Shown here piece after piece: positions 2,699 to 11,409 of a DNA stretch of 64,000 nt. Made by a program: the position numbers and the translations under genes. The stretch is from contig OZ244561.1 of NCBI GenBank assembly GCA_965217585.1, positions 3,136,001 through 3,200,000 on the forward strand. Direction: 5' to 3'. This DNA is from Candidatus Latescibacterota bacterium (GTDB taxonomy: Bacteria; Latescibacterota; UBA2968; UBA8231). A model generated the notes under the pieces. It made no database searches, was not told where the DNA came from, and was given only the letters and a program-made list of their open reading frames with translations. Within the stretch, counting starts at the first letter, position 1. Each line of letters begins with the position of its first letter.

Positions 2699-4111
2699 GT
2701 GCCCCAAAACGTCAGCGAAGAACACGTACGCAAAATAGTCGAAGAAGTGGTGCAGCGCGTCGTCAGCGGCGGGGACGGCAGCGAGGGCGGGGACACTGGT
2801 GTCTTCGCGACGGTCGACGCGGCTGTCCAAGGCGCGACCCGCGCCCAGCAGCAGTTGGTGGCCTTGTCGCTAGAGGAGCGCAAAAAGATCGTCGAGGCCC
2901 TCCGGCAGACGGCGCACGTCCACGCCGAGGAGTTTTCGCGGCGGGCCTTGGCCGAGACGGGCATGGGGCGGTTGGAAGACAAGATCATCAAGCACCAAGT
3001 CGCGGCCGACACCACGCCCGGTGTCGAAGACCTAGAGGCCACTTCGTGGACCGGCGACCACGGGCTGACCGTAGTCGAAATGGCTCCCTACGGGGTCATC
3101 GGCGCGGTCACCCCATCTACACATCCCGTGCCGACGATGGTCAACAACGCCATTTGCATTGTCGCCGCGGGCAACTCGGTCGTCTTCAACGTACATCCGG
3201 CGGGCAGAAAGGTCTCCATGTTCGCGGTGGGCTTGATCAATCAAGCCATCGTCGCAGCCGGCGGGCCGGCCAACTTGGTGACCGCGGTTGAGACGCCGAC
3301 GATTGAGACGGCCAACGAATTGTTCAACCACCCGGATGTCCGCCTGCTGCTGGTAACCGGCGGGCCGGGCGTGGCCAAGGCCGCACTGGGTAGCCCCAAG
3401 AAGGCCATTGTCGCTGGTCCGGGCAATCCGCCCGCGGTGGTCGATGAAACCGCCGATTTGGCCAAGGCCGCGCGCGATATAATCGACGGGGGGGGCTTCG
3501 ACAACAACATTCTCTGCATCGGCGAGAAGCAGGTCTTTGCCGTCGCCTCCATTGCCGACGAGCTCAAGCGGCTGATGGTCCAGTACAATGCATATGAGCT
3601 CGATGCGCGGCAGATCGAGGCCCTCGCGCAGGTGGCCTTTGTCGAAGGGCCGGACGGGCATCTCGCAGCCAACCGCGAGCTGGTAGGACGCGACGCTGCC
3701 GTGCTGGGCGAGCGCATCGACCTCCGGCTCGACTCGTCGCTGCGCGTGCTCATTGGCGAAACCGACGCCAACCACGTTTTTGTGCGCGAGGAGCAGATGA
3801 TGCCCTTTCTGCCGATCGTGCGGGTTCCCAACATCGACCAAGCCATCCGCGAGGCCGTCATCTCCGAGCACGGCTACGGGCACACGGCCGTGATCCATTC
3901 GCGCAACATCGAAAACATGCACAACATGGCCCGCGCCGTAGATACCACTATTTTCGTCAAGAACGGCCCTTCCTACGCTGGGGTTGGCTTGGGCGGCGAG
4001 GGCTTTGGGACGTACTCCATCGCCGGGCCTACGGGCGAGGGCCTGACTTCACCGCGGACTTTTACCCGCCAGCGCCGCTGCGCCCTCGTCGACTACTTCC
4101 GCATCACCTGA
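2699..4111 (+). CDS. CoA-acylating aldehyde dehydrogenase (EutE/PduP family) with N-terminal encapsulation peptide
   Basis: 'ETGMG', 'TPGVEDL', 'PYGVIGAVTPSTHP', 'GPGNPP', 'FDNNILC', 'TGEGLT'; amphipathic N-terminus 'EEHVRKIVEEVVQRV'. Confidence 0.93.
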   Translation: MPQNVSEEHVRKIVEEVVQRVVSGGDGSEGGDTGVFATVDAAVQGATRAQQQLVALSLEERKKIVEALRQTAHVHAEEFSRRALAETGMGRLEDKIIKHQVAADTTPGVEDLEATSWTGDHGLTVVEMAPYGVIGAVTPSTHPVPTMVNNAICIVAAGNSVVFNVHPAGRKVSMFAVGLINQAIVAAGGPANLVTAVETPTIETANELFNHPDVRLLLVTGGPGVAKAALGSPKKAIVAGPGNPPAVVDETADLAKAARDIIDGGGFDNNILCIGEKQVFAVASIADELKRLMVQYNAYELDARQIEALAQVAFVEGPDGHLAANRELVGRDAAVLGERIDLRLDSSLRVLIGETDANHVFVREEQMMPFLPIVRVPNIDQAIREAVISEHGYGHTAVIHSRNIENMHNMARAVDTTIFVKNGPSYAGVGLGGEGFGTYSIAGPTGEGLTSPRTFTRQRRCALVDYFRIT

Positions 4112-4425
4112 TGCTCTTGGGCCAAGTCAAAGGGCATTTGGTTTCCACGGCCAAGGTCCCGAGCCTCAACGGCAAGAAGCTCTTAGTCGTCGAAATCGCG
4201 TCGGTGCGCGAGCATGGTCTGGTGCTGACGGGGCGGGATATGGTCTGCATCGATGCGGTGCAAGCGGGCAAGGGCGAGCTGGTGATTTTGGTGCAGGGCA
4301 GCTCGTCGCGGATCGCCCCGGACTTGGCCGACGTGCCAGCCGACGCGGTAATCGTCGGGATCGTCGATTCGCTACAGGCCATGGGCAAAGACTTCGACTG
4401 TCGGCAACTGAGCCGCGAAGGATAG
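4111..4425 (+). CDS. BMC vertex pentamer (EutN/CcmL family)
   Basis: 'G.V.STAK..L.G.KLLVV', 'DAVQAGKGE.V', 'GSSSR', 'DAVIVGIVD'. Confidence 0.92.
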   Translation: MLLGQVKGHLVSTAKVPSLNGKKLLVVEIASVREHGLVLTGRDMVCIDAVQAGKGELVILVQGSSSRIAPDLADVPADAVIVGIVDSLQAMGKDFDCRQLSREG

Positions 4426-4428
4426 GCG

Positions 4429-5109
4429 ATGGACGTTGCACCAGCGGCTGGATTGGACCGCAAGCAGATTGAGGCGTTGGTGCGCCGGGTGGTGTACGAT
4501 CACCTGCCCGACGCTCAGCTAGAGCAGGCACCCCCAGCCCCGAGGCTGGTAGTCAATATGTCCGCCCGCCACGTCCACCTCAATCAAGAGGCGCTGGACG
4601 CGCTTTTCGGCGCGGGTGCCGAGCTAACCGTGCAGAAGGCCCTGTATCAGGAAGGAGCTTTTGCCGCCGAGCAGACGGTGTCGGTTTTCGGCCCGCGCAA
4701 GCAGGTGATTCCCAATGTCCGCATCCTCGGCCCATTGCGCGAGTACAACCAAGTGGAGCTGGCCTTTACGGACGCCCGCTTTTTGGGCATTAACGCGCCG
4801 GTGCGGCTCAGCGGTAACATAGAGGGGACGCCGGGCTGCTACTTGGTGGGGCCGGCTGGGGGACTAGAGTTGGATCACGGGGTGATTCGGGCCGCCCGCC
4901 ATGTACATCTAAACCCGGCAGAGGCCGCGTACTATGGGGTCGGCCCGGGGGACTTGCTGCGGCTGGTAGTAGAAGGTGACCAGGGCGGGGTGCTGGAAGG
5001 GCTGATCTGTCGAGTCAGCGAGCGCGAGCGCCTAGAAGTTCACATCGACACGGACGAGGGCAATGCGATTGATTTGGTCCATGCCCGCAAGGTATATTTG
5101 GAGCGTTGA
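4429..5109 (+). CDS. pduL: Phosphate propanoyl/acyltransferase (PduL) with N-terminal encapsulation peptide
   Basis: 'SARHVHL', 'VRILGP.R', 'P.RLSG', 'RHVH', 'HIDTDEGNA'; N-terminal 'KQIEALVRRVV'. Confidence 0.92.
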   Translation: MDVAPAAGLDRKQIEALVRRVVYDHLPDAQLEQAPPAPRLVVNMSARHVHLNQEALDALFGAGAELTVQKALYQEGAFAAEQTVSVFGPRKQVIPNVRILGPLREYNQVELAFTDARFLGINAPVRLSGNIEGTPGCYLVGPAGGLELDHGVIRAARHVHLNPAEAAYYGVGPGDLLRLVVEGDQGGVLEGLICRVSERERLEVHIDTDEGNAIDLVHARKVYLER

Positions 5110-5146
5110 ACGCAAAAATCCGCACAATTACTTCAGGAGGTAAGGG

Positions 5147-5707
5147 ATGTCGGATGCAATAGGCATGGTAGAAACGGTGGGGCTGGTCGGGGTCGTCGAG
5201 GCCGGCGACGCCATGGCCAAGGCCGCCAGCGTACAGCTTTTGGGCTGGGACAGAGTCGGCTCCGGCTTGGTGACCGTGTTTTGCTCGGGCGATGTGGCGG
5301 CCGTCAAGTCGGCCGTGGATGCCGGCTCGGCCGCTGCGGCCAAGGTTGGGGAGGTGCATTCGGTGCATGTGATTCCCCGCCCGCACAGCGAGTTGACGGC
5401 CGTCGTGCCCGAGCGCGGCGACAGCGACGACAGCGATGGTCGCGTCCGCGCCTTGGGTCTCATTGAGACGAAGGGGGCCATCGGCGTGATCGAAGCAGCC
5501 GACGCCATGAGCAAGGCCGCCGATGTGGAGGTCGTCAAGCTCCAGGACATCGGTGGCGGGTACATTACCGTCATGGTCAGCGGCGACGTAGGCTCGGTGC
5601 AGGCTTCGGTCAGCGCTGGTGCCGAGGCGGCCGAGCGCGTGGGCGAGCTTGTGTCGCAGCACGTGATTCCCCGTCCCCACGACGATCTCGTCGCGTTGTA
5701 CTTGTAG
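5147..5707 (+). CDS. BMC shell protein with two tandem BMC-H-like domains
   Basis: Two repeats of A[IL]G[ML].ET.G...DAM.K...GDV..V..[AS]V.AG...VIPRPH. Confidence 0.92.
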   Translation: MSDAIGMVETVGLVGVVEAGDAMAKAASVQLLGWDRVGSGLVTVFCSGDVAAVKSAVDAGSAAAAKVGEVHSVHVIPRPHSELTAVVPERGDSDDSDGRVRALGLIETKGAIGVIEAADAMSKAADVEVVKLQDIGGGYITVMVSGDVGSVQASVSAGAEAAERVGELVSQHVIPRPHDDLVALYL

Positions 5708-5723
5708 GTAGAGGAGAGAAATA

Positions 5724-5987
5724 ATGAAAGCATTGGGTATGGTCGAGACCCGCGGTTTGGTCTGCGTCGTCGAAGCCCTCGACGCCATGTTGAAAACCGC
5801 CGACGTGAGCTATGCGGGCCAAAAGCGCGTGGGTAGTGGCCTAATTACCGTGCTAGTCGAAGGCGACGTAGCGGCCGTCAAAGCGGCCGTAGATGCGGGA
5901 GCGCAAGCCGCCCAGCGCATCGGCGAGCTGCGCAGCGTCCACGTGATTCCCCGCCCTACTGAGGGGCTGACAGACCACATTGGTTAG
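5724..5987 (+). CDS. BMC hexamer shell protein (BMC-H, PduA/EutM-like)
   Basis: 'ALGMVETRG', 'DAMLK', 'VGSG', '[10 protein letters not shown]', 'VIPRP'. Confidence 0.95.
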
Positions 5988-5991
5988 CTAA

Positions 5992-6441
5992 GTGGCCGAG
6001 GCTTTGCACATCGACGCCCCGGTAGTCACCGGCGATTTGCTCGGGCGCGAGCACAAGGGCGAGCGGACGCTCAGCGTGGCTCCCAGCGCCATCTTGACGC
6101 CGACGGCTTGGGATTACATCCGCCAGCACCGGTTGCAGCTAAGTCGCGGCGAGGCCGTTGCGGCAGCCGCCGACGGCGTTGCGGACGCGGGCCGTTGCGA
6201 GCATCCCGACCGCGCCTGCGGCTGCCAGCACGAGGAATTTGGCTCGGGGTACGTCGAGCCGTCGCGCTGCGGCGATTGCGCCGTCCACCAGCGCAAGAAG
6301 GCGGGGGATCCCGAGGCGAGTTGCGAGGGTTGCAACCGCTACAAGACGCTGTTGCAACAAATCGAGCAGGGCCAAGCCACCGATCCAGAAGCCTTAATTG
6401 AGCAGATCACCGAGCTAGTAATTCACCGGCTGGCAGACTAA
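5992..6441 (+). CDS. BMC-associated Cys-rich hypothetical protein with C-terminal encapsulation-like helix
   Basis: N-terminal 'ILTPTAWDYI' module; CxxxxxxCxC, CxxC, CxxC clusters; C-terminal 'EALIEQITELVIHRL'. Confidence 0.65.
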   Translation: MAEALHIDAPVVTGDLLGREHKGERTLSVAPSAILTPTAWDYIRQHRLQLSRGEAVAAAADGVADAGRCEHPDRACGCQHEEFGSGYVEPSRCGDCAVHQRKKAGDPEASCEGCNRYKTLLQQIEQGQATDPEALIEQITELVIHRLAD

Positions 6442-6444
6442 GCT

Positions 6445-7029
6445 ATGGCGGGCGACCCAGCAGTTGGCATGATCGAAGTGCAGGGCGTGGCCGCCGCCAT
6501 TGTGGGTGCGGATGCGGCCTGCAAGGCCGCGGATGTGCAGCTCGCGGGTTGGGCGTCAATCGGCGGCTATACCACGGCCTTTTTCACCGGGTCGATCAGC
6601 GATGTGGCCGCCGCGCTGCAAAGCGGCGAAGAAGCGGCCCGCGGCGTGGTAGAACACGTGGTGGCCGTGCCTCTAAACCAACCCGTTCCCGCCTGCTTCC
6701 ATTTCGTCGATTTTCCGGTCCGTGCCCACAGCGACTTTCCCGCCGGTGCCTTGGGGTTGGTCGAGACGCGCGGCTATGGGGCCCATATTCACACGAACGA
6801 TCAGATGGTCAAGACGGCTGCTGTCGAGGTAATCAACGTGCTGACGGTCCACGACCGCGTGGTGTGTTCGCTGGTCTTGGGAGACGTAGGAGCCGTCACC
6901 GAAGCCATCGCCGTCGCGCAAAAGCTGCTCGCGGGGTGCGAGCGCTTGCTAGGCACGGCACTGATTCCGCAGCCGCGACCAGAGGTTTTGGCTGCATACG
7001 CCGTGCCGATGGGAGGTGGCGGTGTCTAG
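6445..7029 (+). CDS. Divergent two-domain BMC shell protein
   Basis: 'AVGMIEVQG...DAACKAADV' and 'ALGLVETRG...DQMVKTAAV...GDVGAV...IPQPRP'. Confidence 0.85.
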   Translation: MAGDPAVGMIEVQGVAAAIVGADAACKAADVQLAGWASIGGYTTAFFTGSISDVAAALQSGEEAARGVVEHVVAVPLNQPVPACFHFVDFPVRAHSDFPAGALGLVETRGYGAHIHTNDQMVKTAAVEVINVLTVHDRVVCSLVLGDVGAVTEAIAVAQKLLAGCERLLGTALIPQPRPEVLAAYAVPMGGGGV

Positions 7030-8170
7030 CGGGGCGATCGGCATGTTGGAGACGCGCGGCATGGCGTCGCTGATGGCTTCCACCGACGCCATGCTCAAGG
7101 CCGCTGAGGTACACCTCTGTGGTCGGCACGGCATTGGCTCGGGTTGGCTCACCGTAGTAATTGCCGGCCAAGTAGCTGACGTGGAGGCGGCCATTCGCGT
7201 CGGCGAGGTCGAGGCGAACCGCACCGGCGAATTGATTGGCGCGCGAGTGGTGCCGAGGCCGGACACGCGCGCCATGGACGCCATGCCCCACGCAACTGGC
7301 CTCGGTGCCGAACAGGTACGGCCGCAGGCGATTGGCCTGTTGGAGACGCAGGGCCTGACGCCGCTAGTGGCTGGCGTCGATGCCATGCTCAAGGCCGCCC
7401 AAGTGGAGCTAGGGGGTTGGGCTTTCATCGGCGGCGCGCTGTGTCACGCGCCGATCTTTGGCGATGTGGCGGCTGTGCAGACGGCGCTAGAAGTCGGCCG
7501 ACAAGCAGCCGAGCGGATTGGCACTGTGTACGCGACCCTCGTTTTGCCCCAGCCCAGCGAGGGGCTAGGCCCTCTGCTGCCGCCCGCGCCACCGGTCACA
7601 CCGCGCTCCACGGGTGCCTTGGGCCTCATAGAGACCATTGGTTACTCCGCGGTCGTGGGCAGCGCCGACGCCATGCTCAAGGCCGCGGATGTCCAAATCG
7701 AGCGCTTGAGCATCGGCAGCGGCGGGCGGATTGCCGCGCTGGCTACCGGCCAGCTCGACGACGTGCAGGCCGCCCTGCGCGCTGGTGCTGAGGCGGCCAC
7801 GGGCTTGGGGCAGCTCGAAGCCTCGGCTGTAGTCTCTCGGCCCGATCCCGCGCTAGTCGCTCGTTTTGCCACTGCGGCCGAGGGCCTTGGGCCGGGTGCG
7901 CGGCAGGCTATGGGGCTGATTGAGACGCGCAGCACCGTGGCCTTGGTGCGGGCCGTCGATCGGATGCTCAAAGCCGCGGCCGTCGAATACGAAGGGGCCT
8001 ATAAGGTGGGGTACTACTTGACGGCCGCCGTCGTCCGCGGCGATGTCGGTGCCGTGCAGGTCGCCATAGAGGCGGGCCGGCAGGAGGCCGTCGCACACGG
8101 AGAACTGGTCTCGGCCTACGCCATTCCGCAGCCCTACAGCGGCCTCGAAGGCCGCCTGCCGCACGTTTAG
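7016..8170 (+). CDS. BMC shell protein with four fused BMC-H-like domains
   Basis: Four repeats starting AIGMLETRG / AIGLLETQG / ALGLIETIG / AMGLIETRS, each with D(A/R)MLKAA, in one 384-aa ORF. Confidence 0.9.
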   Translation: MAVSSGAIGMLETRGMASLMASTDAMLKAAEVHLCGRHGIGSGWLTVVIAGQVADVEAAIRVGEVEANRTGELIGARVVPRPDTRAMDAMPHATGLGAEQVRPQAIGLLETQGLTPLVAGVDAMLKAAQVELGGWAFIGGALCHAPIFGDVAAVQTALEVGRQAAERIGTVYATLVLPQPSEGLGPLLPPAPPVTPRSTGALGLIETIGYSAVVGSADAMLKAADVQIERLSIGSGGRIAALATGQLDDVQAALRAGAEAATGLGQLEASAVVSRPDPALVARFATAAEGLGPGARQAMGLIETRSTVALVRAVDRMLKAAAVEYEGAYKVGYYLTAAVVRGDVGAVQVAIEAGRQEAVAHGELVSAYAIPQPYSGLEGRLPHV

Positions 8171-8184
8171 CGAGGACGCGAAAA

Positions 8185-9357
8185 ATGATTCGGATTGACG
8201 ATGCAGTAATTACCGCTCAGACCTTGGAGGGCCGCCTGTCTGGCGAACGGCAGGTCGAGCTCGGCCCGGGGGCCAAGCTGACGCCCTCGGCGCAGGACTT
8301 TTTGCGCGCTCAAGGCGTTGAGGTTGTGCGTCGATCGGACGGGGAGCCAGCACCTGCCGCGCCCGCCGCGCCCCGGGTCCCGGCCGCTAACGTGGGGGGC
8401 CGCAAGGCATTTGCTGGCATCTTCTGCCCCAACGTCGTCCTTTTCGACCGCGAGAACGAGATCAACCACGCCGAGATGGAGCGCTACATCAACTGGCTGG
8501 TCGAGGTTGGGATCCACGGGCTGTATCCCAATGGCAGCACTGGCGAGTTCGCGCGCTTGTCGCGGGAGGAGCGCCAAGACGTGGTGCGGCTGGTCTGCGA
8601 GGTCAACGCGGGGCGCGTACCTGTACTGGCCGGAGCCAGCGAGGCCAACTTGCGCGACGTGCTCAAGATGGCTGAATACTACGCCTCGCTCGGCGTGGAT
8701 GCCATTGCGCTGATGCCCCCCTATTACTATGAGATTTCCACTGAAAGCCTCTTCGAGTACTTCGCTGAAATCGCCGAAGAATCGCCGCTGGACATCTTGC
8801 TATACAATATCCCGCGATTTACCCAAGAGCTGTCGATAGATCTGATGGAGCGACTCTTGCCCTACGAGCGGATCTTCGGCACCAAGGACTCCAGCCGCGA
8901 CCTGCCGCGGCTGCTCAACACCATGAATCGCTTGCGCCAACAGCGCCCCGAATACGTGGTAATGACCGGTTGCGAGGAGATCGTGTTCCCCTCGGTGCTC
9001 ATGGGCGCCAGTGGGGGCACCATCGCCACCTCGGGCATCGTCCCAGAGGTGATTGTCGAGCTTTATGAAAAGGCCAAAAGCGGCGACATTGAGCGGGCCC
9101 GCGAACTGCAATACCGCATCCTCGATCTCATCAACCTCATGCTCTTAGGCGTCAACTTCCCAGAGGGCTTCAAGACCGGCGTGGCGGCTCGTGGCTTTGA
9201 CGTAGGCCCAGCGCGGGCATCTACTACTGCCGCCGAGCAGGAGTACCTGCTCAAGCTAGAGGCCCAAATCAACTGCGTCCTCGCGGATATGGGCTATCCG
9301 GTGAGCGGCCCCCGCGCCTGCCCGACGACCAACCTGCCGCCGATCGTCGGCCGTTAG
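8185..9357 (+). CDS. DHDPS/class I aldolase family enzyme with extra N-terminal module and Pro/Ala linker
   Basis: 'PNGSTGE', 'YNIP', 'TKDSS' (Schiff-base Lys); about 70 aa N-terminal extension. Confidence 0.88.
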   Translation: MIRIDDAVITAQTLEGRLSGERQVELGPGAKLTPSAQDFLRAQGVEVVRRSDGEPAPAAPAAPRVPAANVGGRKAFAGIFCPNVVLFDRENEINHAEMERYINWLVEVGIHGLYPNGSTGEFARLSREERQDVVRLVCEVNAGRVPVLAGASEANLRDVLKMAEYYASLGVDAIALMPPYYYEISTESLFEYFAEIAEESPLDILLYNIPRFTQELSIDLMERLLPYERIFGTKDSSRDLPRLLNTMNRLRQQRPEYVVMTGCEEIVFPSVLMGASGGTIATSGIVPEVIVELYEKAKSGDIERARELQYRILDLINLMLLGVNFPEGFKTGVAARGFDVGPARASTTAAEQEYLLKLEAQINCVLADMGYPVSGPRACPTTNLPPIVGR

Positions 9358-10434
9358 ATGGCCCTTGCGGGCGCGCGTGTGTTGGTGGTCGGGGCCGGTA
9401 TCATTGGCCGCTCGACGGCCTACTTCCTCGCGCGGCAAGGCGCGAAGATCGTCCTGCTCGACGAGGGAATCCCCGCTGGCTCGCCCACGAGCCGGGCCTC
9501 TTTGGGCGTCCTCACCCACTGCAACGGCGGCGACAATCCCTACGCCCAGCTTTTCCGCGACGGTCACGCTCTGCACGCTCGGCTGGCCCGCGACTTAGAA
9601 GAAGATATAGACGCAGATGTGGGCTGGCGTCCCCTCGGCGGCATCGAGCTTTTTGCCGACGCATCCCAGATAGAGGAGGTCTGGCGCTTCAACCGCGCGC
9701 GCGGCTGTCGGGTCGAACGGCTCGACGAGCGGGCCTTGCGCGGTGCGGAGCCGGCGTTGGACGGCGGTTGCGAGGGTCTGTATTTTGCCGACGATCACCG
9801 GGTGGATCCCCTCAAGTTGGGCGCGGCGCTTTGGGCGGCGGCCGTACAGCGTGGCGCGTCCGCCGCTTGGGGTGAGCGCGTCTGGCGCATTGCCCAAGAG
9901 GGCGAGGCCGTCGAGGTCGCCACCAGTCGCGGAACCCACCGCGCTGACTTTGCGGTCTTGGCGGCTGGAGCGTGGACCGGCGGCTTGGCTGCGCAACTCG
10001 GTGCCCGCGTCGCGTTGCGCCCGGTGCGGGGCCAACAAGCGCGATTTGCCGGTGCCCCGCTGCGCCACCTAGTGAAGGTAAACGGACGCCACCTAATTCC
10101 AGACGGCGGCGAAACGGTCGTGGGATCGACGATGGAAGAGGTCGGCTTTCGGTTGGAAACGACCCGCGCGGCCGCGGCGGAGTTTGCCTCGGAGGTACGC
10201 TCCGCGCTGGGGAGGTGCTTGCCGCTGTCGCGCCAGCAGGCTGGTCTGCGGCCCAAGCCCCGAGGCGGGCGTCCGCTCATCGGCCCGCTGACGGATGCGC
10301 CGAGGGTTTTCGTGGCCTCTGGGCACTACAAAAACGGCGTCTTATTAGGCCCGATTACCGGCCAGATCGTCGCTCACTGGATCGCCGAGGGAACCCCAGG
10401 GCGCGACATGCGCCGCTTCGCACCCGAGCGTTGA
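9358..10434 (+). CDS. FAD-dependent amino-acid oxidase (glycine oxidase ThiO/DadA-like)
   Basis: GAGIIG dinucleotide motif, 'PVRGQ', 'GLRP', 'GHYKNG.LLGP.TG'. Confidence 0.85.
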   Translation: MALAGARVLVVGAGIIGRSTAYFLARQGAKIVLLDEGIPAGSPTSRASLGVLTHCNGGDNPYAQLFRDGHALHARLARDLEEDIDADVGWRPLGGIELFADASQIEEVWRFNRARGCRVERLDERALRGAEPALDGGCEGLYFADDHRVDPLKLGAALWAAAVQRGASAAWGERVWRIAQEGEAVEVATSRGTHRADFAVLAAGAWTGGLAAQLGARVALRPVRGQQARFAGAPLRHLVKVNGRHLIPDGGETVVGSTMEEVGFRLETTRAAAAEFASEVRSALGRCLPLSRQQAGLRPKPRGGRPLIGPLTDAPRVFVASGHYKNGVLLGPITGQIVAHWIAEGTPGRDMRRFAPER

Positions 10435-10467
10435 ATTCATTGCCACCTAACACAGTTGAGGTTAAAC

Positions 10468-11409
10468 ATGCCATTGCAAAAAGAAGACCTACTCGCCGCG
10501 CTAAACTCGGTTACCTCCATCCCGGTGGTCCCTTTTCGCGGCGGGCAAATCGACTACGAGGCCCACGCCAAGAACATCAACTACTTAATGGAGAACAATC
10601 ACTTAGACGGTGATCGGCCCCGGGTGATTGGTATCGCTGGCACTAGCTTGATCCACCACATTAGCGCGGACGAGCGAGTGCGGCTGTTGGGCTTTACCGG
10701 CGAGCAGATGGGGGGGCGCGGGGTGCTGATGTCCGGGATTGCTCCCAATCCAGTTGGGGATGCCGAGCGGTTGATCGAGCGGGAGGCCGCGCTGGAATAT
10801 CCCCCGGATGTCTATCTCGTCATGCCGCTTACTGGCGTGGCCAATCCAGAGGGCATTTTCGCGTACTACGTGGATTTTGCCGAGCGGTTGGGGCGTTCGT
10901 GCGGGGCCAAGTTGCTCTACTACCTGCGCAACCAAGCCGAGCGCGAGATAGCCGTGCGACTGATGAACGAATCCGAGCACTTCGTGGGGCTGAAGATCGG
11001 CACTACGGTCGAGGACGTTGAGCCGATTGTCGCCGACGTACAGGAGGGAGCTGCGCTGGTGATATGGGGTGTGGGGGACCGTTCGACTGGGCCGGCCGAG
11101 CGCGGCACCAAAGGGCATACGTCGGGGATCAACGTGGCCTTCGCCCGCGCTTCAGACGAGATCAACAACGCCCAGCGCCGAGGCGATTTTGCGACCTCGC
11201 AGCAGATCGAAAACCAGCTCGCGGCCCTAGAGGAAATTCGCTTCCGCAACGGCCGCATGTACAACTACTCGGCTGTGGTCGAGGCCATGCACTTGGGGGG
11301 ATTCAGCGATGTGGATGGCGGCGAGGGCGGTCCGTTCAATCCGCGGGTGTCGGCGGAAGTGGCCGAGGAAGTAGCCGCGGCCATAGCCGACATTGTGGAC
11401 TATCACTAG
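10468..11409 (+). CDS. Divergent DHDPS-family protein (keto-deoxy acid dehydratase/aldolase-like)
   Basis: 'IPVVPF..GQID', 'YYLRN', 'GLKIG', 'WGVGD', 'GHTSG'. Confidence 0.7.
   Translation: MPLQKEDLLAALNSVTSIPVVPFRGGQIDYEAHAKNINYLMENNHLDGDRPRVIGIAGTSLIHHISADERVRLLGFTGEQMGGRGVLMSGIAPNPVGDAERLIEREAALEYPPDVYLVMPLTGVANPEGIFAYYVDFAERLGRSCGAKLLYYLRNQAEREIAVRLMNESEHFVGLKIGTTVEDVEPIVADVQEGAALVIWGVGDRSTGPAERGTKGHTSGINVAFARASDEINNAQRRGDFATSQQIENQLAALEEIRFRNGRMYNYSAVVEAMHLGGFSDVDGGEGGPFNPRVSAEVAEEVAAAIADIVDYH

Follow-up and report, generated by a model that had tools for sequence, protein, structure and literature searches.

Shell tiles of bacterial microcompartments (BMCs) are described, in the portions of the literature accessible to us, as built from six single-domain or three two-domain subunits. 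A 2021 catalog distinguishes six types of shell protein, none with more than two domains according to its accessible text, and states in its Methods that sequences suspected of being sequencing or gene-model errors were pruned (PMC8217296). By the definition given in the accessible part of MCPdb, BMC-T proteins consist of two tandem repeats. Here we analyze a stretch of 64,000 nucleotides (the window) from a Candidatus Latescibacterota bacterium (assembly GCA_965217585.1, contig OZ244561.1, positions 3,136,001 to 3,200,000 of the forward strand), in which one gene, Q384, encodes a shell protein of four fused BMC domains and lies directly downstream of T194, a gene for a two-domain shell protein. 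Comparative data and structure predictions suggest that the two products probably form a two-chain pseudohexamer tile without rotational symmetry.

Among the closest known systems are the BMC-T(s) proteins, such as PduT (3N79/3PAC) and BMC-T1 of Haliangium ochraceum (5DIH), which are made of fused, non-permuted PF00936 domains, as are Q384 and T194, and which build a six-domain hexagonal tile. T194 matches their two-domain format, whereas Q384, with four PF00936 domains, falls outside a type defined by exactly two. Furthermore, a BMC-T(s) tile is a trimer of identical two-domain chains, as stated in the accessible text of the catalog (PMC8217296), while the four domains of Q384 are predicted to enter an asymmetric tile of two unlike chains. 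The best PDB match to Q384 in both sequence (E 2e-33) and fold is 6NER, a synthetic tandem BMC-H in a Haliangium ochraceum shell, whose consecutive canonical domains are ring neighbors joined by a linker, as modeled for Q384. However, 6NER is engineered, with two identical domains, and is presumably trimeric, whereas Q384 is natural, with four unlike domains and a conserved partner. The mixed tiles of CcmK3 and CcmK4 are built from single-domain subunits in variable composition; in contrast, order and stoichiometry in a Q384/T194 tile would be fixed by fusion. These heterohexamers of beta-carboxysomes provide, as far as the accessible text of the source goes, a precedent for one tile made from different gene products (PMC6788708). 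In the known BMC-T(dp) proteins (CsoS1D and CcmP), two pseudohexameric rings form one unit; these proteins are thus the model for a stacked homotrimer of Q384, but according to the accessible catalog text their domains are circularly permuted and their rings are not covalently joined (PMC8217296), whereas the domains of Q384 are non-permuted.

A natural chain exceeding two BMC domains was not found in the accessible parts of the literature searched, including texts on Latescibacter* and microcompartments, texts on MUF2 (a locus type that the main text of the catalog lists as being of unknown function), MCPdb, and an archaeal-microcompartment preprint; the supplementary locus drawings of the catalog were not covered and may show the gene. 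A PDB sequence search with Q384 returned 53 distinct chains at E <=1e-10, none longer than 213 aa. On the accessible literature, then, the four-domain fusion appears to be a new variant of BMC shell protein.

A conserved four-domain shell protein

Open reading frame analysis showed Q384 to comprise 384 codons and a stop, open throughout, and PF00936 matched its product in four stretches (E 2.1e-77, 255.5 bits against a Pfam gathering cut-off of 24.5). Each domain covers profile positions 1-75, and the domains are thus canonical rather than circularly permuted. A first-pass annotation, made from the letters alone, had claimed for 7016-8170 four complete BMC repeats, each with a D-x-x-x-K edge motif and a PRP/PQP-like end, with different pore loops (IGSG, IGGA, IGSGG, and VGYY) and no internal stops. 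This description was borne out in every particular: the four lysines (K28, K126, K222, and K319), the four ends (PRP, PQP, SRP, and PQP), and all four loops are present, and no stop interrupts the frame here or in any full-length match from 83 genomes. The gene may begin at the second GTG, at 7022, rather than at 7016; GGAGG lies 5 nt 5' of that codon, and the resulting length of 382 aa is the commonest among the homologues listed (n=38).

The four-domain frame is real and not an assembly error, since it lies on a single 7.3-Mb contig, is kept in 83 of the 168 genomes of the phylum, and shows no indel in contigs from public sequencing runs. Q384 is spread over 17 of 49 genera and three families, always without internal stops in full-length matches. 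The first-pass annotation had proposed checking reads for a lost stop codon and looking for four-domain homologues; the latter were found in these genomes, and in four public runs, each from a different study, no contig had an indel within 7016-8170. A 1110-nt contig from an RNA library spans 6885-7993 ungapped, bridging the junction of T194 and Q384, and a second RNA-library contig spans 5100-7263 ungapped, although contigs in such a library are no proof of transcription. A search for homologues of near-equal length returned 754 proteins, and among the 120 listed were more than 100 clusters of approximately 370-400 aa, down to 54% identity. Retention of the architecture in over 100 clusters around 380 aa, to that level of identity, excludes chance. 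Records of the closest relatives are labeled Candidatus Latescibacterota, with a few labeled Gemmatimonadota or Gemmatimonadetes.

Two separate two-domain genes never replaced Q384 in relatives among the 168 phylum genomes, in which full-length matches were free of stops. The short representatives that were checked as possible split forms turned out to be contig-end fragments; one of them, P0250 (185 aa), is encoded on a contig of 782 nt and shares its cluster with a protein of 387 aa. Judging from sequence searches, the four-domain architecture is confined to the Q384 family: in a scan of 1.84 billion representatives, full-length four-domain proteins made up only two clusters at the 50% level, accompanied by fragments. 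In Firmicutes and Cyanobacteria, long tblastn matches that were considered as further four-domain proteins were runs of separate adjacent shell genes, and no open frame long enough for four BMC domains was present at 10 such loci (L012-L019, L022, and L031). No six-domain chain of approximately 575 aa appeared in the homologue searches, and a search from 673 to 2000 aa was empty, which is weak evidence. Long open frames 5' of Q384 (<=791 codons), examined as potential fusions, overlapped T194 out of frame at 20 of 20 loci.

Strict pairing of T194 with Q384

At all 59 loci examined (L001-L010 and L081-L129, some representing one genome reached via two collections), the Q384 orthologue is immediately preceded on its own strand by a T194 orthologue. 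These loci include 20 distant genomes, picked from the 83 that bear Q384, whose products are 46-60% identical to Q384; T194 is upstream in all 20. The gap between the two genes in relatives is approximately -14 to +12 nt, with one of +175 by a rough start estimate, and in the window the genes overlap (Table 1); the arrangement of stop, start, and upstream GGAGG makes translational coupling likely. The two genes are in different frames at 51 of the 53 loci measured and share a frame, with a separating stop, at the remaining 2 (L008 and L129). At L129, the stop stands directly between the two open frames, and read-through would yield a six-domain chain.

With six-frame searching for Q384, that gene was found in 83 of the 168 genomes and the T194 type in 84, the additional one (G096) being 85% complete in 980 contigs, with a T194 fragment at a contig end; there was no case of Q384 without T194 among the 168. 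In two near-complete genomes (100% and 99%) of family f3, T194 and Q384 are the only multi-domain shell proteins, and the total of eight BMC domains is made up of two single-domain genes and the 2+4 pair.

Six positional domains

A tree was built from 11 Q384-family and 10 T194-family proteins, chosen for diversity from 121 of each. The two domains of T194 (T1 and T2) and the four of Q384 (Q1 to Q4) each formed one clade (SH-aLRT 86-100), without resolution of the relations between clades, and within the window the domains are mutually 20-47% identical. Across 51 non-redundant orthologues or orthologue pairs, the set to which the residue counts out of 51 refer, each domain class keeps its own pore loop nearly unchanged. 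In these loops, T2 carries conserved His/Arg, Q3 a conserved Arg, and Q4 conserved Lys/Tyr/Tyr. The lysine of the D-x-x-x-K edge motif is used in tile-tile contacts in PduA and CcmK, and it is kept in 51/51 in all six domains, including K27 and K123 of T194. The arginine of the PRP-type motif occurs only in Q1 and Q3 (R81 in 40/51 and R275 in 41/51), the residue in T1, T2, Q2, and Q4 being Gln; thus, the six edges of the proposed tile would be non-equivalent, and the tile may prefer one orientation in the facet. The same conservation picture was obtained from two larger alignments, A1 with 117 of 121 Q384-family sequences (four below 365 aa were dropped) and A2 with the T194 of the window plus 116 of 120 relatives (four outside 180-200 aa were dropped).

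The domains are also evenly spaced. Mean distances between successive domain starts, from T1 through Q4, were 96.0, 95.6, 98.2, 96.3, and 97.4 codons in 53 of 60 loci (the motif pattern missed the other 7). The second interval, which crosses the gene boundary (range, 92.7-100), equals those spanned by covalent linkers, and the tail of T194 and the head of Q384 together are therefore as long as a linker. Linker types alternate along the domains. In the conserved linker between Q2 and Q3, P180 is invariant, and conservation of G183, L187, and P189 is >=90%.

Structure predictions and the proposed tile

With alignment A1 (117 rows), AlphaFold2 (AF2) modeled the Q384 monomer at a predicted local distance difference test (pLDDT) score of 93.0 and a predicted template modeling score (pTM) of 0.91, the latter indicating a rigid mutual arrangement of the four domains; the short helix modeled in the other linkers was also present in the Q2-Q3 linker. 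A single-sequence AF2 run, tried as a control, failed to fold the protein (pLDDT 36.9, pTM 0.26) and says nothing on domain arrangement. In Foldseek comparisons, consecutive domain pairs of Q384 superposed on 6NER (TMt 0.87-0.89, ~179 columns); against the natural two-domain proteins PduT, BMC-T1, and 3NWG, TMt was ~0.42 with a root-mean-square deviation of ~15 Å, and on PduT and BMC-T1 only one domain superposed. In these models, the direction of linked domains round the ring may differ from that of classical BMC-T.

With the best control at 0.01, three predictions of the Q384-T194 complex, in which each chain was given its own alignment, yielded ipSAE scores of 0.85, 0.85, and 0.86; in calibration, 58 of 80 solved complexes and 2 of 110 mismatched pairs attained this mark. 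The three runs agreed in >=93% of contacts, with a partner pLDDT of >=89. Confident contacts joined Q1 (residues 8-94) to T2 (110-143 and tail 188-191) and Q4 (305-362) to T1 (7-87), and none involved Q2 or Q3 with T194; this pattern corresponds to a closed 2+4 ring in the order T1-T2-Q1-Q2-Q3-Q4. A multimer prediction of a 4+2 complex had been among the checks suggested by the first-pass annotation, and in it the six-domain ring closed.

Because the pairing is strict, the domains add up to six, their spacing is even, and both predictions point in one direction, a 4+2 tile is our favored reading, and we hold it to be somewhat better than an even prospect. It rests on the observed architecture, conservation, pairing, and spacing and on the predicted ring. 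From the four domains the first-pass annotation had drawn two options, namely, two covalently linked pseudohexamers or co-assembly with one- and two-domain shell proteins; of these, co-assembly as 4+2 with the upstream T194 is favored because of the adjacency at 59/59 loci, the presence in the same 83 genomes, and the predicted six-domain ring, whereas the linked pseudohexamers are disfavored.

In the proposed tile, Q384 and T194 would assemble 1:1 as a single unit, ring order would follow gene order, and the C-terminal tail of T194 would head toward Q1 in the manner of a linker. The canonical lysine would be present on all six outer edges and the tile should sit in a facet like any hexamer; since every edge would be lattice-competent, a ring standing outside the facet is less attractive. 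The PRP-motif arginine would occupy two of the six edges only. Six unlike pore loops would converge at the center of the tile, bringing together His/Arg from T2, Arg from Q3, and Lys/Tyr/Tyr from Q4. We infer that this may create a one-of-a-kind pore or docking site serving the aldolase-family enzyme encoded next door, whose N-terminal module is a candidate docking tag (see below). The even spacing and the alternating linker types further suggest that a two-domain gene was likely triplicated and that copies 2 and 3 were then fused.

Several observations weigh against this reading. Adjacency and co-occurrence are expected for any two parts of one organelle, and an aldolase-family gene also follows Q384 in most, not all, distant loci. 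Even spacing may be a relic of common ancestry combined with tight gene packing. The confident AF2 model of Q384 depends on the alignment. Solved structures include many BMC hexamers and trimers, and the pass of the complex prediction may thus reflect likeness to these rather than pair specificity; in addition, its score concerns the Q384-T194 pair only and gives no ranking of other fillers or of homotrimers. Covariation across the predicted interface (mutual information with average product correction; 51 of 60 pairs after removal of those >97% identical, effective number 20) points neither way: most contact residues are invariant, and even the highest-ranking pairs lay no higher than the 93rd-95th percentile.

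Alternative arrangements

One alternative, which we consider unlikely, is a Q384 homotrimer in which the Q1Q2 halves form one pseudohexamer and the Q3Q4 halves a second, stacked face to face or side by side in the facet and tethered by the Q2-Q3 linker, with T194 as a separate BMC-T trimer. Domain ends alternate between RP-type on Q1 and Q3 and QP-type on Q2 and Q4, which makes each half look like a two-domain unit, and such units are known to trimerize; from its start at the tile edge, the linker of ~21 residues might plausibly reach a neighboring tile. However, the AF2 monomer holds all four domains rigid, and the complex model sets Q1 and Q4 exactly two domains apart, a conformation in which Q1Q2 and Q3Q4 could not belong to separate rings. 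In a stacked version, moreover, the outer ring would need no lattice edges, yet all four lysines are kept, and any version leaves the strict 1:1 pairing and the overlap with T194 without a reason. Linker length was considered as a means of separating in-ring from between-tile geometry and was discarded, since both geometries are conceivable for a tail that begins at the edge of the tile.

Alternatively, Q384 may take four positions of a tile whose remainder is filled by two BMC-H subunits (4+1+1), by T186 (the second two-domain protein of the locus), or by half of a second Q384, giving domain-swapped chains of tiles, while T194 trimerizes alone. Every genome that was checked has BMC-H genes, carboxysomes are recorded as having mixed hexamers of BMC-H paralogues in the accessible text of the source (PMC6788708), and the complex prediction tried one filler only. 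Nonetheless, we regard this arrangement as improbable too. Q384 would need a dedicated filler, and none other co-varies with it in presence: T194 is the only shell gene that always accompanies Q384, whereas the two near-complete f3 genomes have Q384 but lack T186. Moreover, the tail of T194 and the head of Q384 span the distance to Q1 with the length of a linker.

A mature protein that differs from the four-domain frame, because of a gene-model or assembly artifact or of posttranslational cleavage into two two-domain halves, is very improbable in view of the single contig, the intact frame in all full-length matches, the indel-free and ungapped public contigs, and a Q2-Q3 linker that is conserved and modeled with the same helix as the others.

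Implications of the proposed 4+2 tile

The symmetry of the tiles known so far means that their pores are lined by three or six identical loops. If the 4+2 tile of Q384 and T194 is correct, it breaks this rule with a pore built from six different loops, and its edges and faces become individually addressable. Such a tile would bear on the selective transport of particular metabolites through shells and on the positioning of specific cargo against the shell, and it would offer a natural template for synthetic tiles carrying exactly one modification per hexagon. We give an even chance to the broader view that this is the first natural asymmetric shell tile, with six fixed unlike positions and a single-copy pore or docking site for the tagged aldolase, and that, together with the three-domain proteins described below, it represents a further class of building block beyond BMC-H, BMC-T, and BMC-P, in which domain counts sum to six.

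The surrounding locus

Q384 lies in a metabolosome locus of eleven genes (Table 1), in which shell genes, including BMC-P (PF03319), stand together with cargo genes for an acylating aldehyde dehydrogenase and a PduL-type phosphotransacylase. The genome is one contig of 7.32 Mb with 11 BMC domains, nine of them in this locus, and four BMC-P genes. The domains of T186 are 51-64% identical to the BMC-H protein of the locus.

Table 1. Coordinates of the features discussed (window positions, except where prefixed C1).
Feature	Position (strand)	Details
Metabolosome locus	2699-11409	Eleven genes including Q384
Acylating aldehyde dehydrogenase, metabolosome core	2699..4111 (+)	PF00171; NF011927 653 bits against cut-off 403
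BMC-P vertex protein	4111..4425 (+)	PF03319, E 9.7e-24
PduL-type phosphotransacylase	4429..5109 (+)	PF06130, E 3.7e-66
T186, second two-domain BMC protein	5147..5707 (+)	Two PF00936 stretches, both BMC-H-like
BMC-H hexamer protein	5724..5987 (+)	87 aa; one PF00936 stretch
Cys-rich protein	5992..6441 (+)	149 aa; no Pfam family
T194, two-domain BMC shell protein, proposed ring partner	6445..7029 (+)	194 aa, 19.6 kDa; two PF00936 stretches
Domain T1	6460-6663 (+)	PF00936 stretch
Domain T2	6748-6975 (+)	PF00936 stretch
C-terminal motif sites of T194	6679-6684, 6970-6975
T194/Q384 overlap	7016..7029 (+)	T194 stop TAG 7027-7029 overlaps Q384 start (GTG 7016 or 7022), GGAGG just upstream
Q384, four-domain BMC shell protein	7016..8170 (+)	384 aa, 38.9 kDa
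Domain Q1	7034..7261 (+)	Pore loop GIGSGW; edge K28 (51/51); C-terminal motif PRP
Domain Q2	7328..7555 (+)	Pore loop FIGGAL; edge K126 (51/51); C-terminal motif PQP
Domain Q3	7616..7843 (+)	Pore loop SIGSGGR; edge K222 (51/51), R238 (51/51); C-terminal motif SRP
Domain Q4	7907..8134 (+)	Pore loop KVGYYL; edge K319 (51/51), K330 (50/51); C-terminal motif PQP
C-terminal motif sites of Q384	7256-7261, 7550-7555, 7838-7843, 8129-8134
Class I aldolase-like enzyme, DHDPS/NAL family	8185..9357 (+)	PF00701, residues 76-362; 75-aa N-terminal extension
FAD-dependent amine or amino-acid oxidoreductase	9358..10434 (+)	PF01266, E 8.5e-57; ThiO-like 174 bits, below cut-off 250.8
Second, divergent DHDPS-family protein, last gene of locus	10456..11409 (+)	PF00701, E 3.1e-10
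Satellite BMC-P triplet, outside window	C1:5126021-5126816	Genome scan
Two lone BMC-H genes, outside window	C1:1549825-1550052; C1:6432676-6432903	Genome scan

The gene directly downstream of Q384 encodes an aldolase-like enzyme of the dihydrodipicolinate synthase/N-acetylneuraminate lyase (DHDPS/NAL) family, whose nearest solved structures (~1e-36) are KDG/KDPG aldolase, YagE, DapA, and NanA and which, from its sequence, is a candidate for the signature enzyme of the compartment. Of the 20 distant loci, 17 have an aldolase-family gene directly after the Q384 orthologue; at the remaining 3, a homologue of the FAD-dependent oxidoreductase takes that place, and no aldolase was found. None of the enzymes at 8185-10434, nor the second DHDPS-like gene, reaches the cut-off of any named NCBIfam equivalog. 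As a conjecture, the compartment perhaps acts on a 2-oxo acid derived from an amino acid, with cleavage yielding an aldehyde.

The first 48 aa of the aldolase-like enzyme (8185-8328) are shared with the Cys-rich protein (5992-6150; BLASTP 35%, E 5e-9), and this module matched no Pfam family. The Cys-rich protein itself gave one weak sub-threshold NCBIfam match, to a hypothetical protein of ethanolamine utilization. Because the two genes that carry the module flank the T194-Q384 pair on both sides, the module could be a shell-docking tag for the proposed tile.

At 8 of the 20 distant loci (L110, L111, L115-L117, L120, L125, and L129), the genes for the aldehyde dehydrogenase, BMC-P, PduL, T186, BMC-H, and the Cys-rich protein are all absent within 3 kb. 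The remaining trio of T194, Q384, and aldolase resembles a movable cassette consisting of one tile and one tagged enzyme.

Three-domain shell proteins

Three-domain BMC proteins occur outside the lineage of Q384: among 10 proteins of 286-569 aa picked from a search of representatives, 7 contained three PF00936 stretches (P0254-P0258, P0261, and P0273). The gene for one of them, in a metagenome-assembled genome of Candidatus Sumerlaeota (L130:3629-4501, + strand), is solitary, with no neighboring shell genes. That genome contains seven BMC domains distributed as 3+2+1+1, and its proteins may pair as 3+3 or as 3+2+1.

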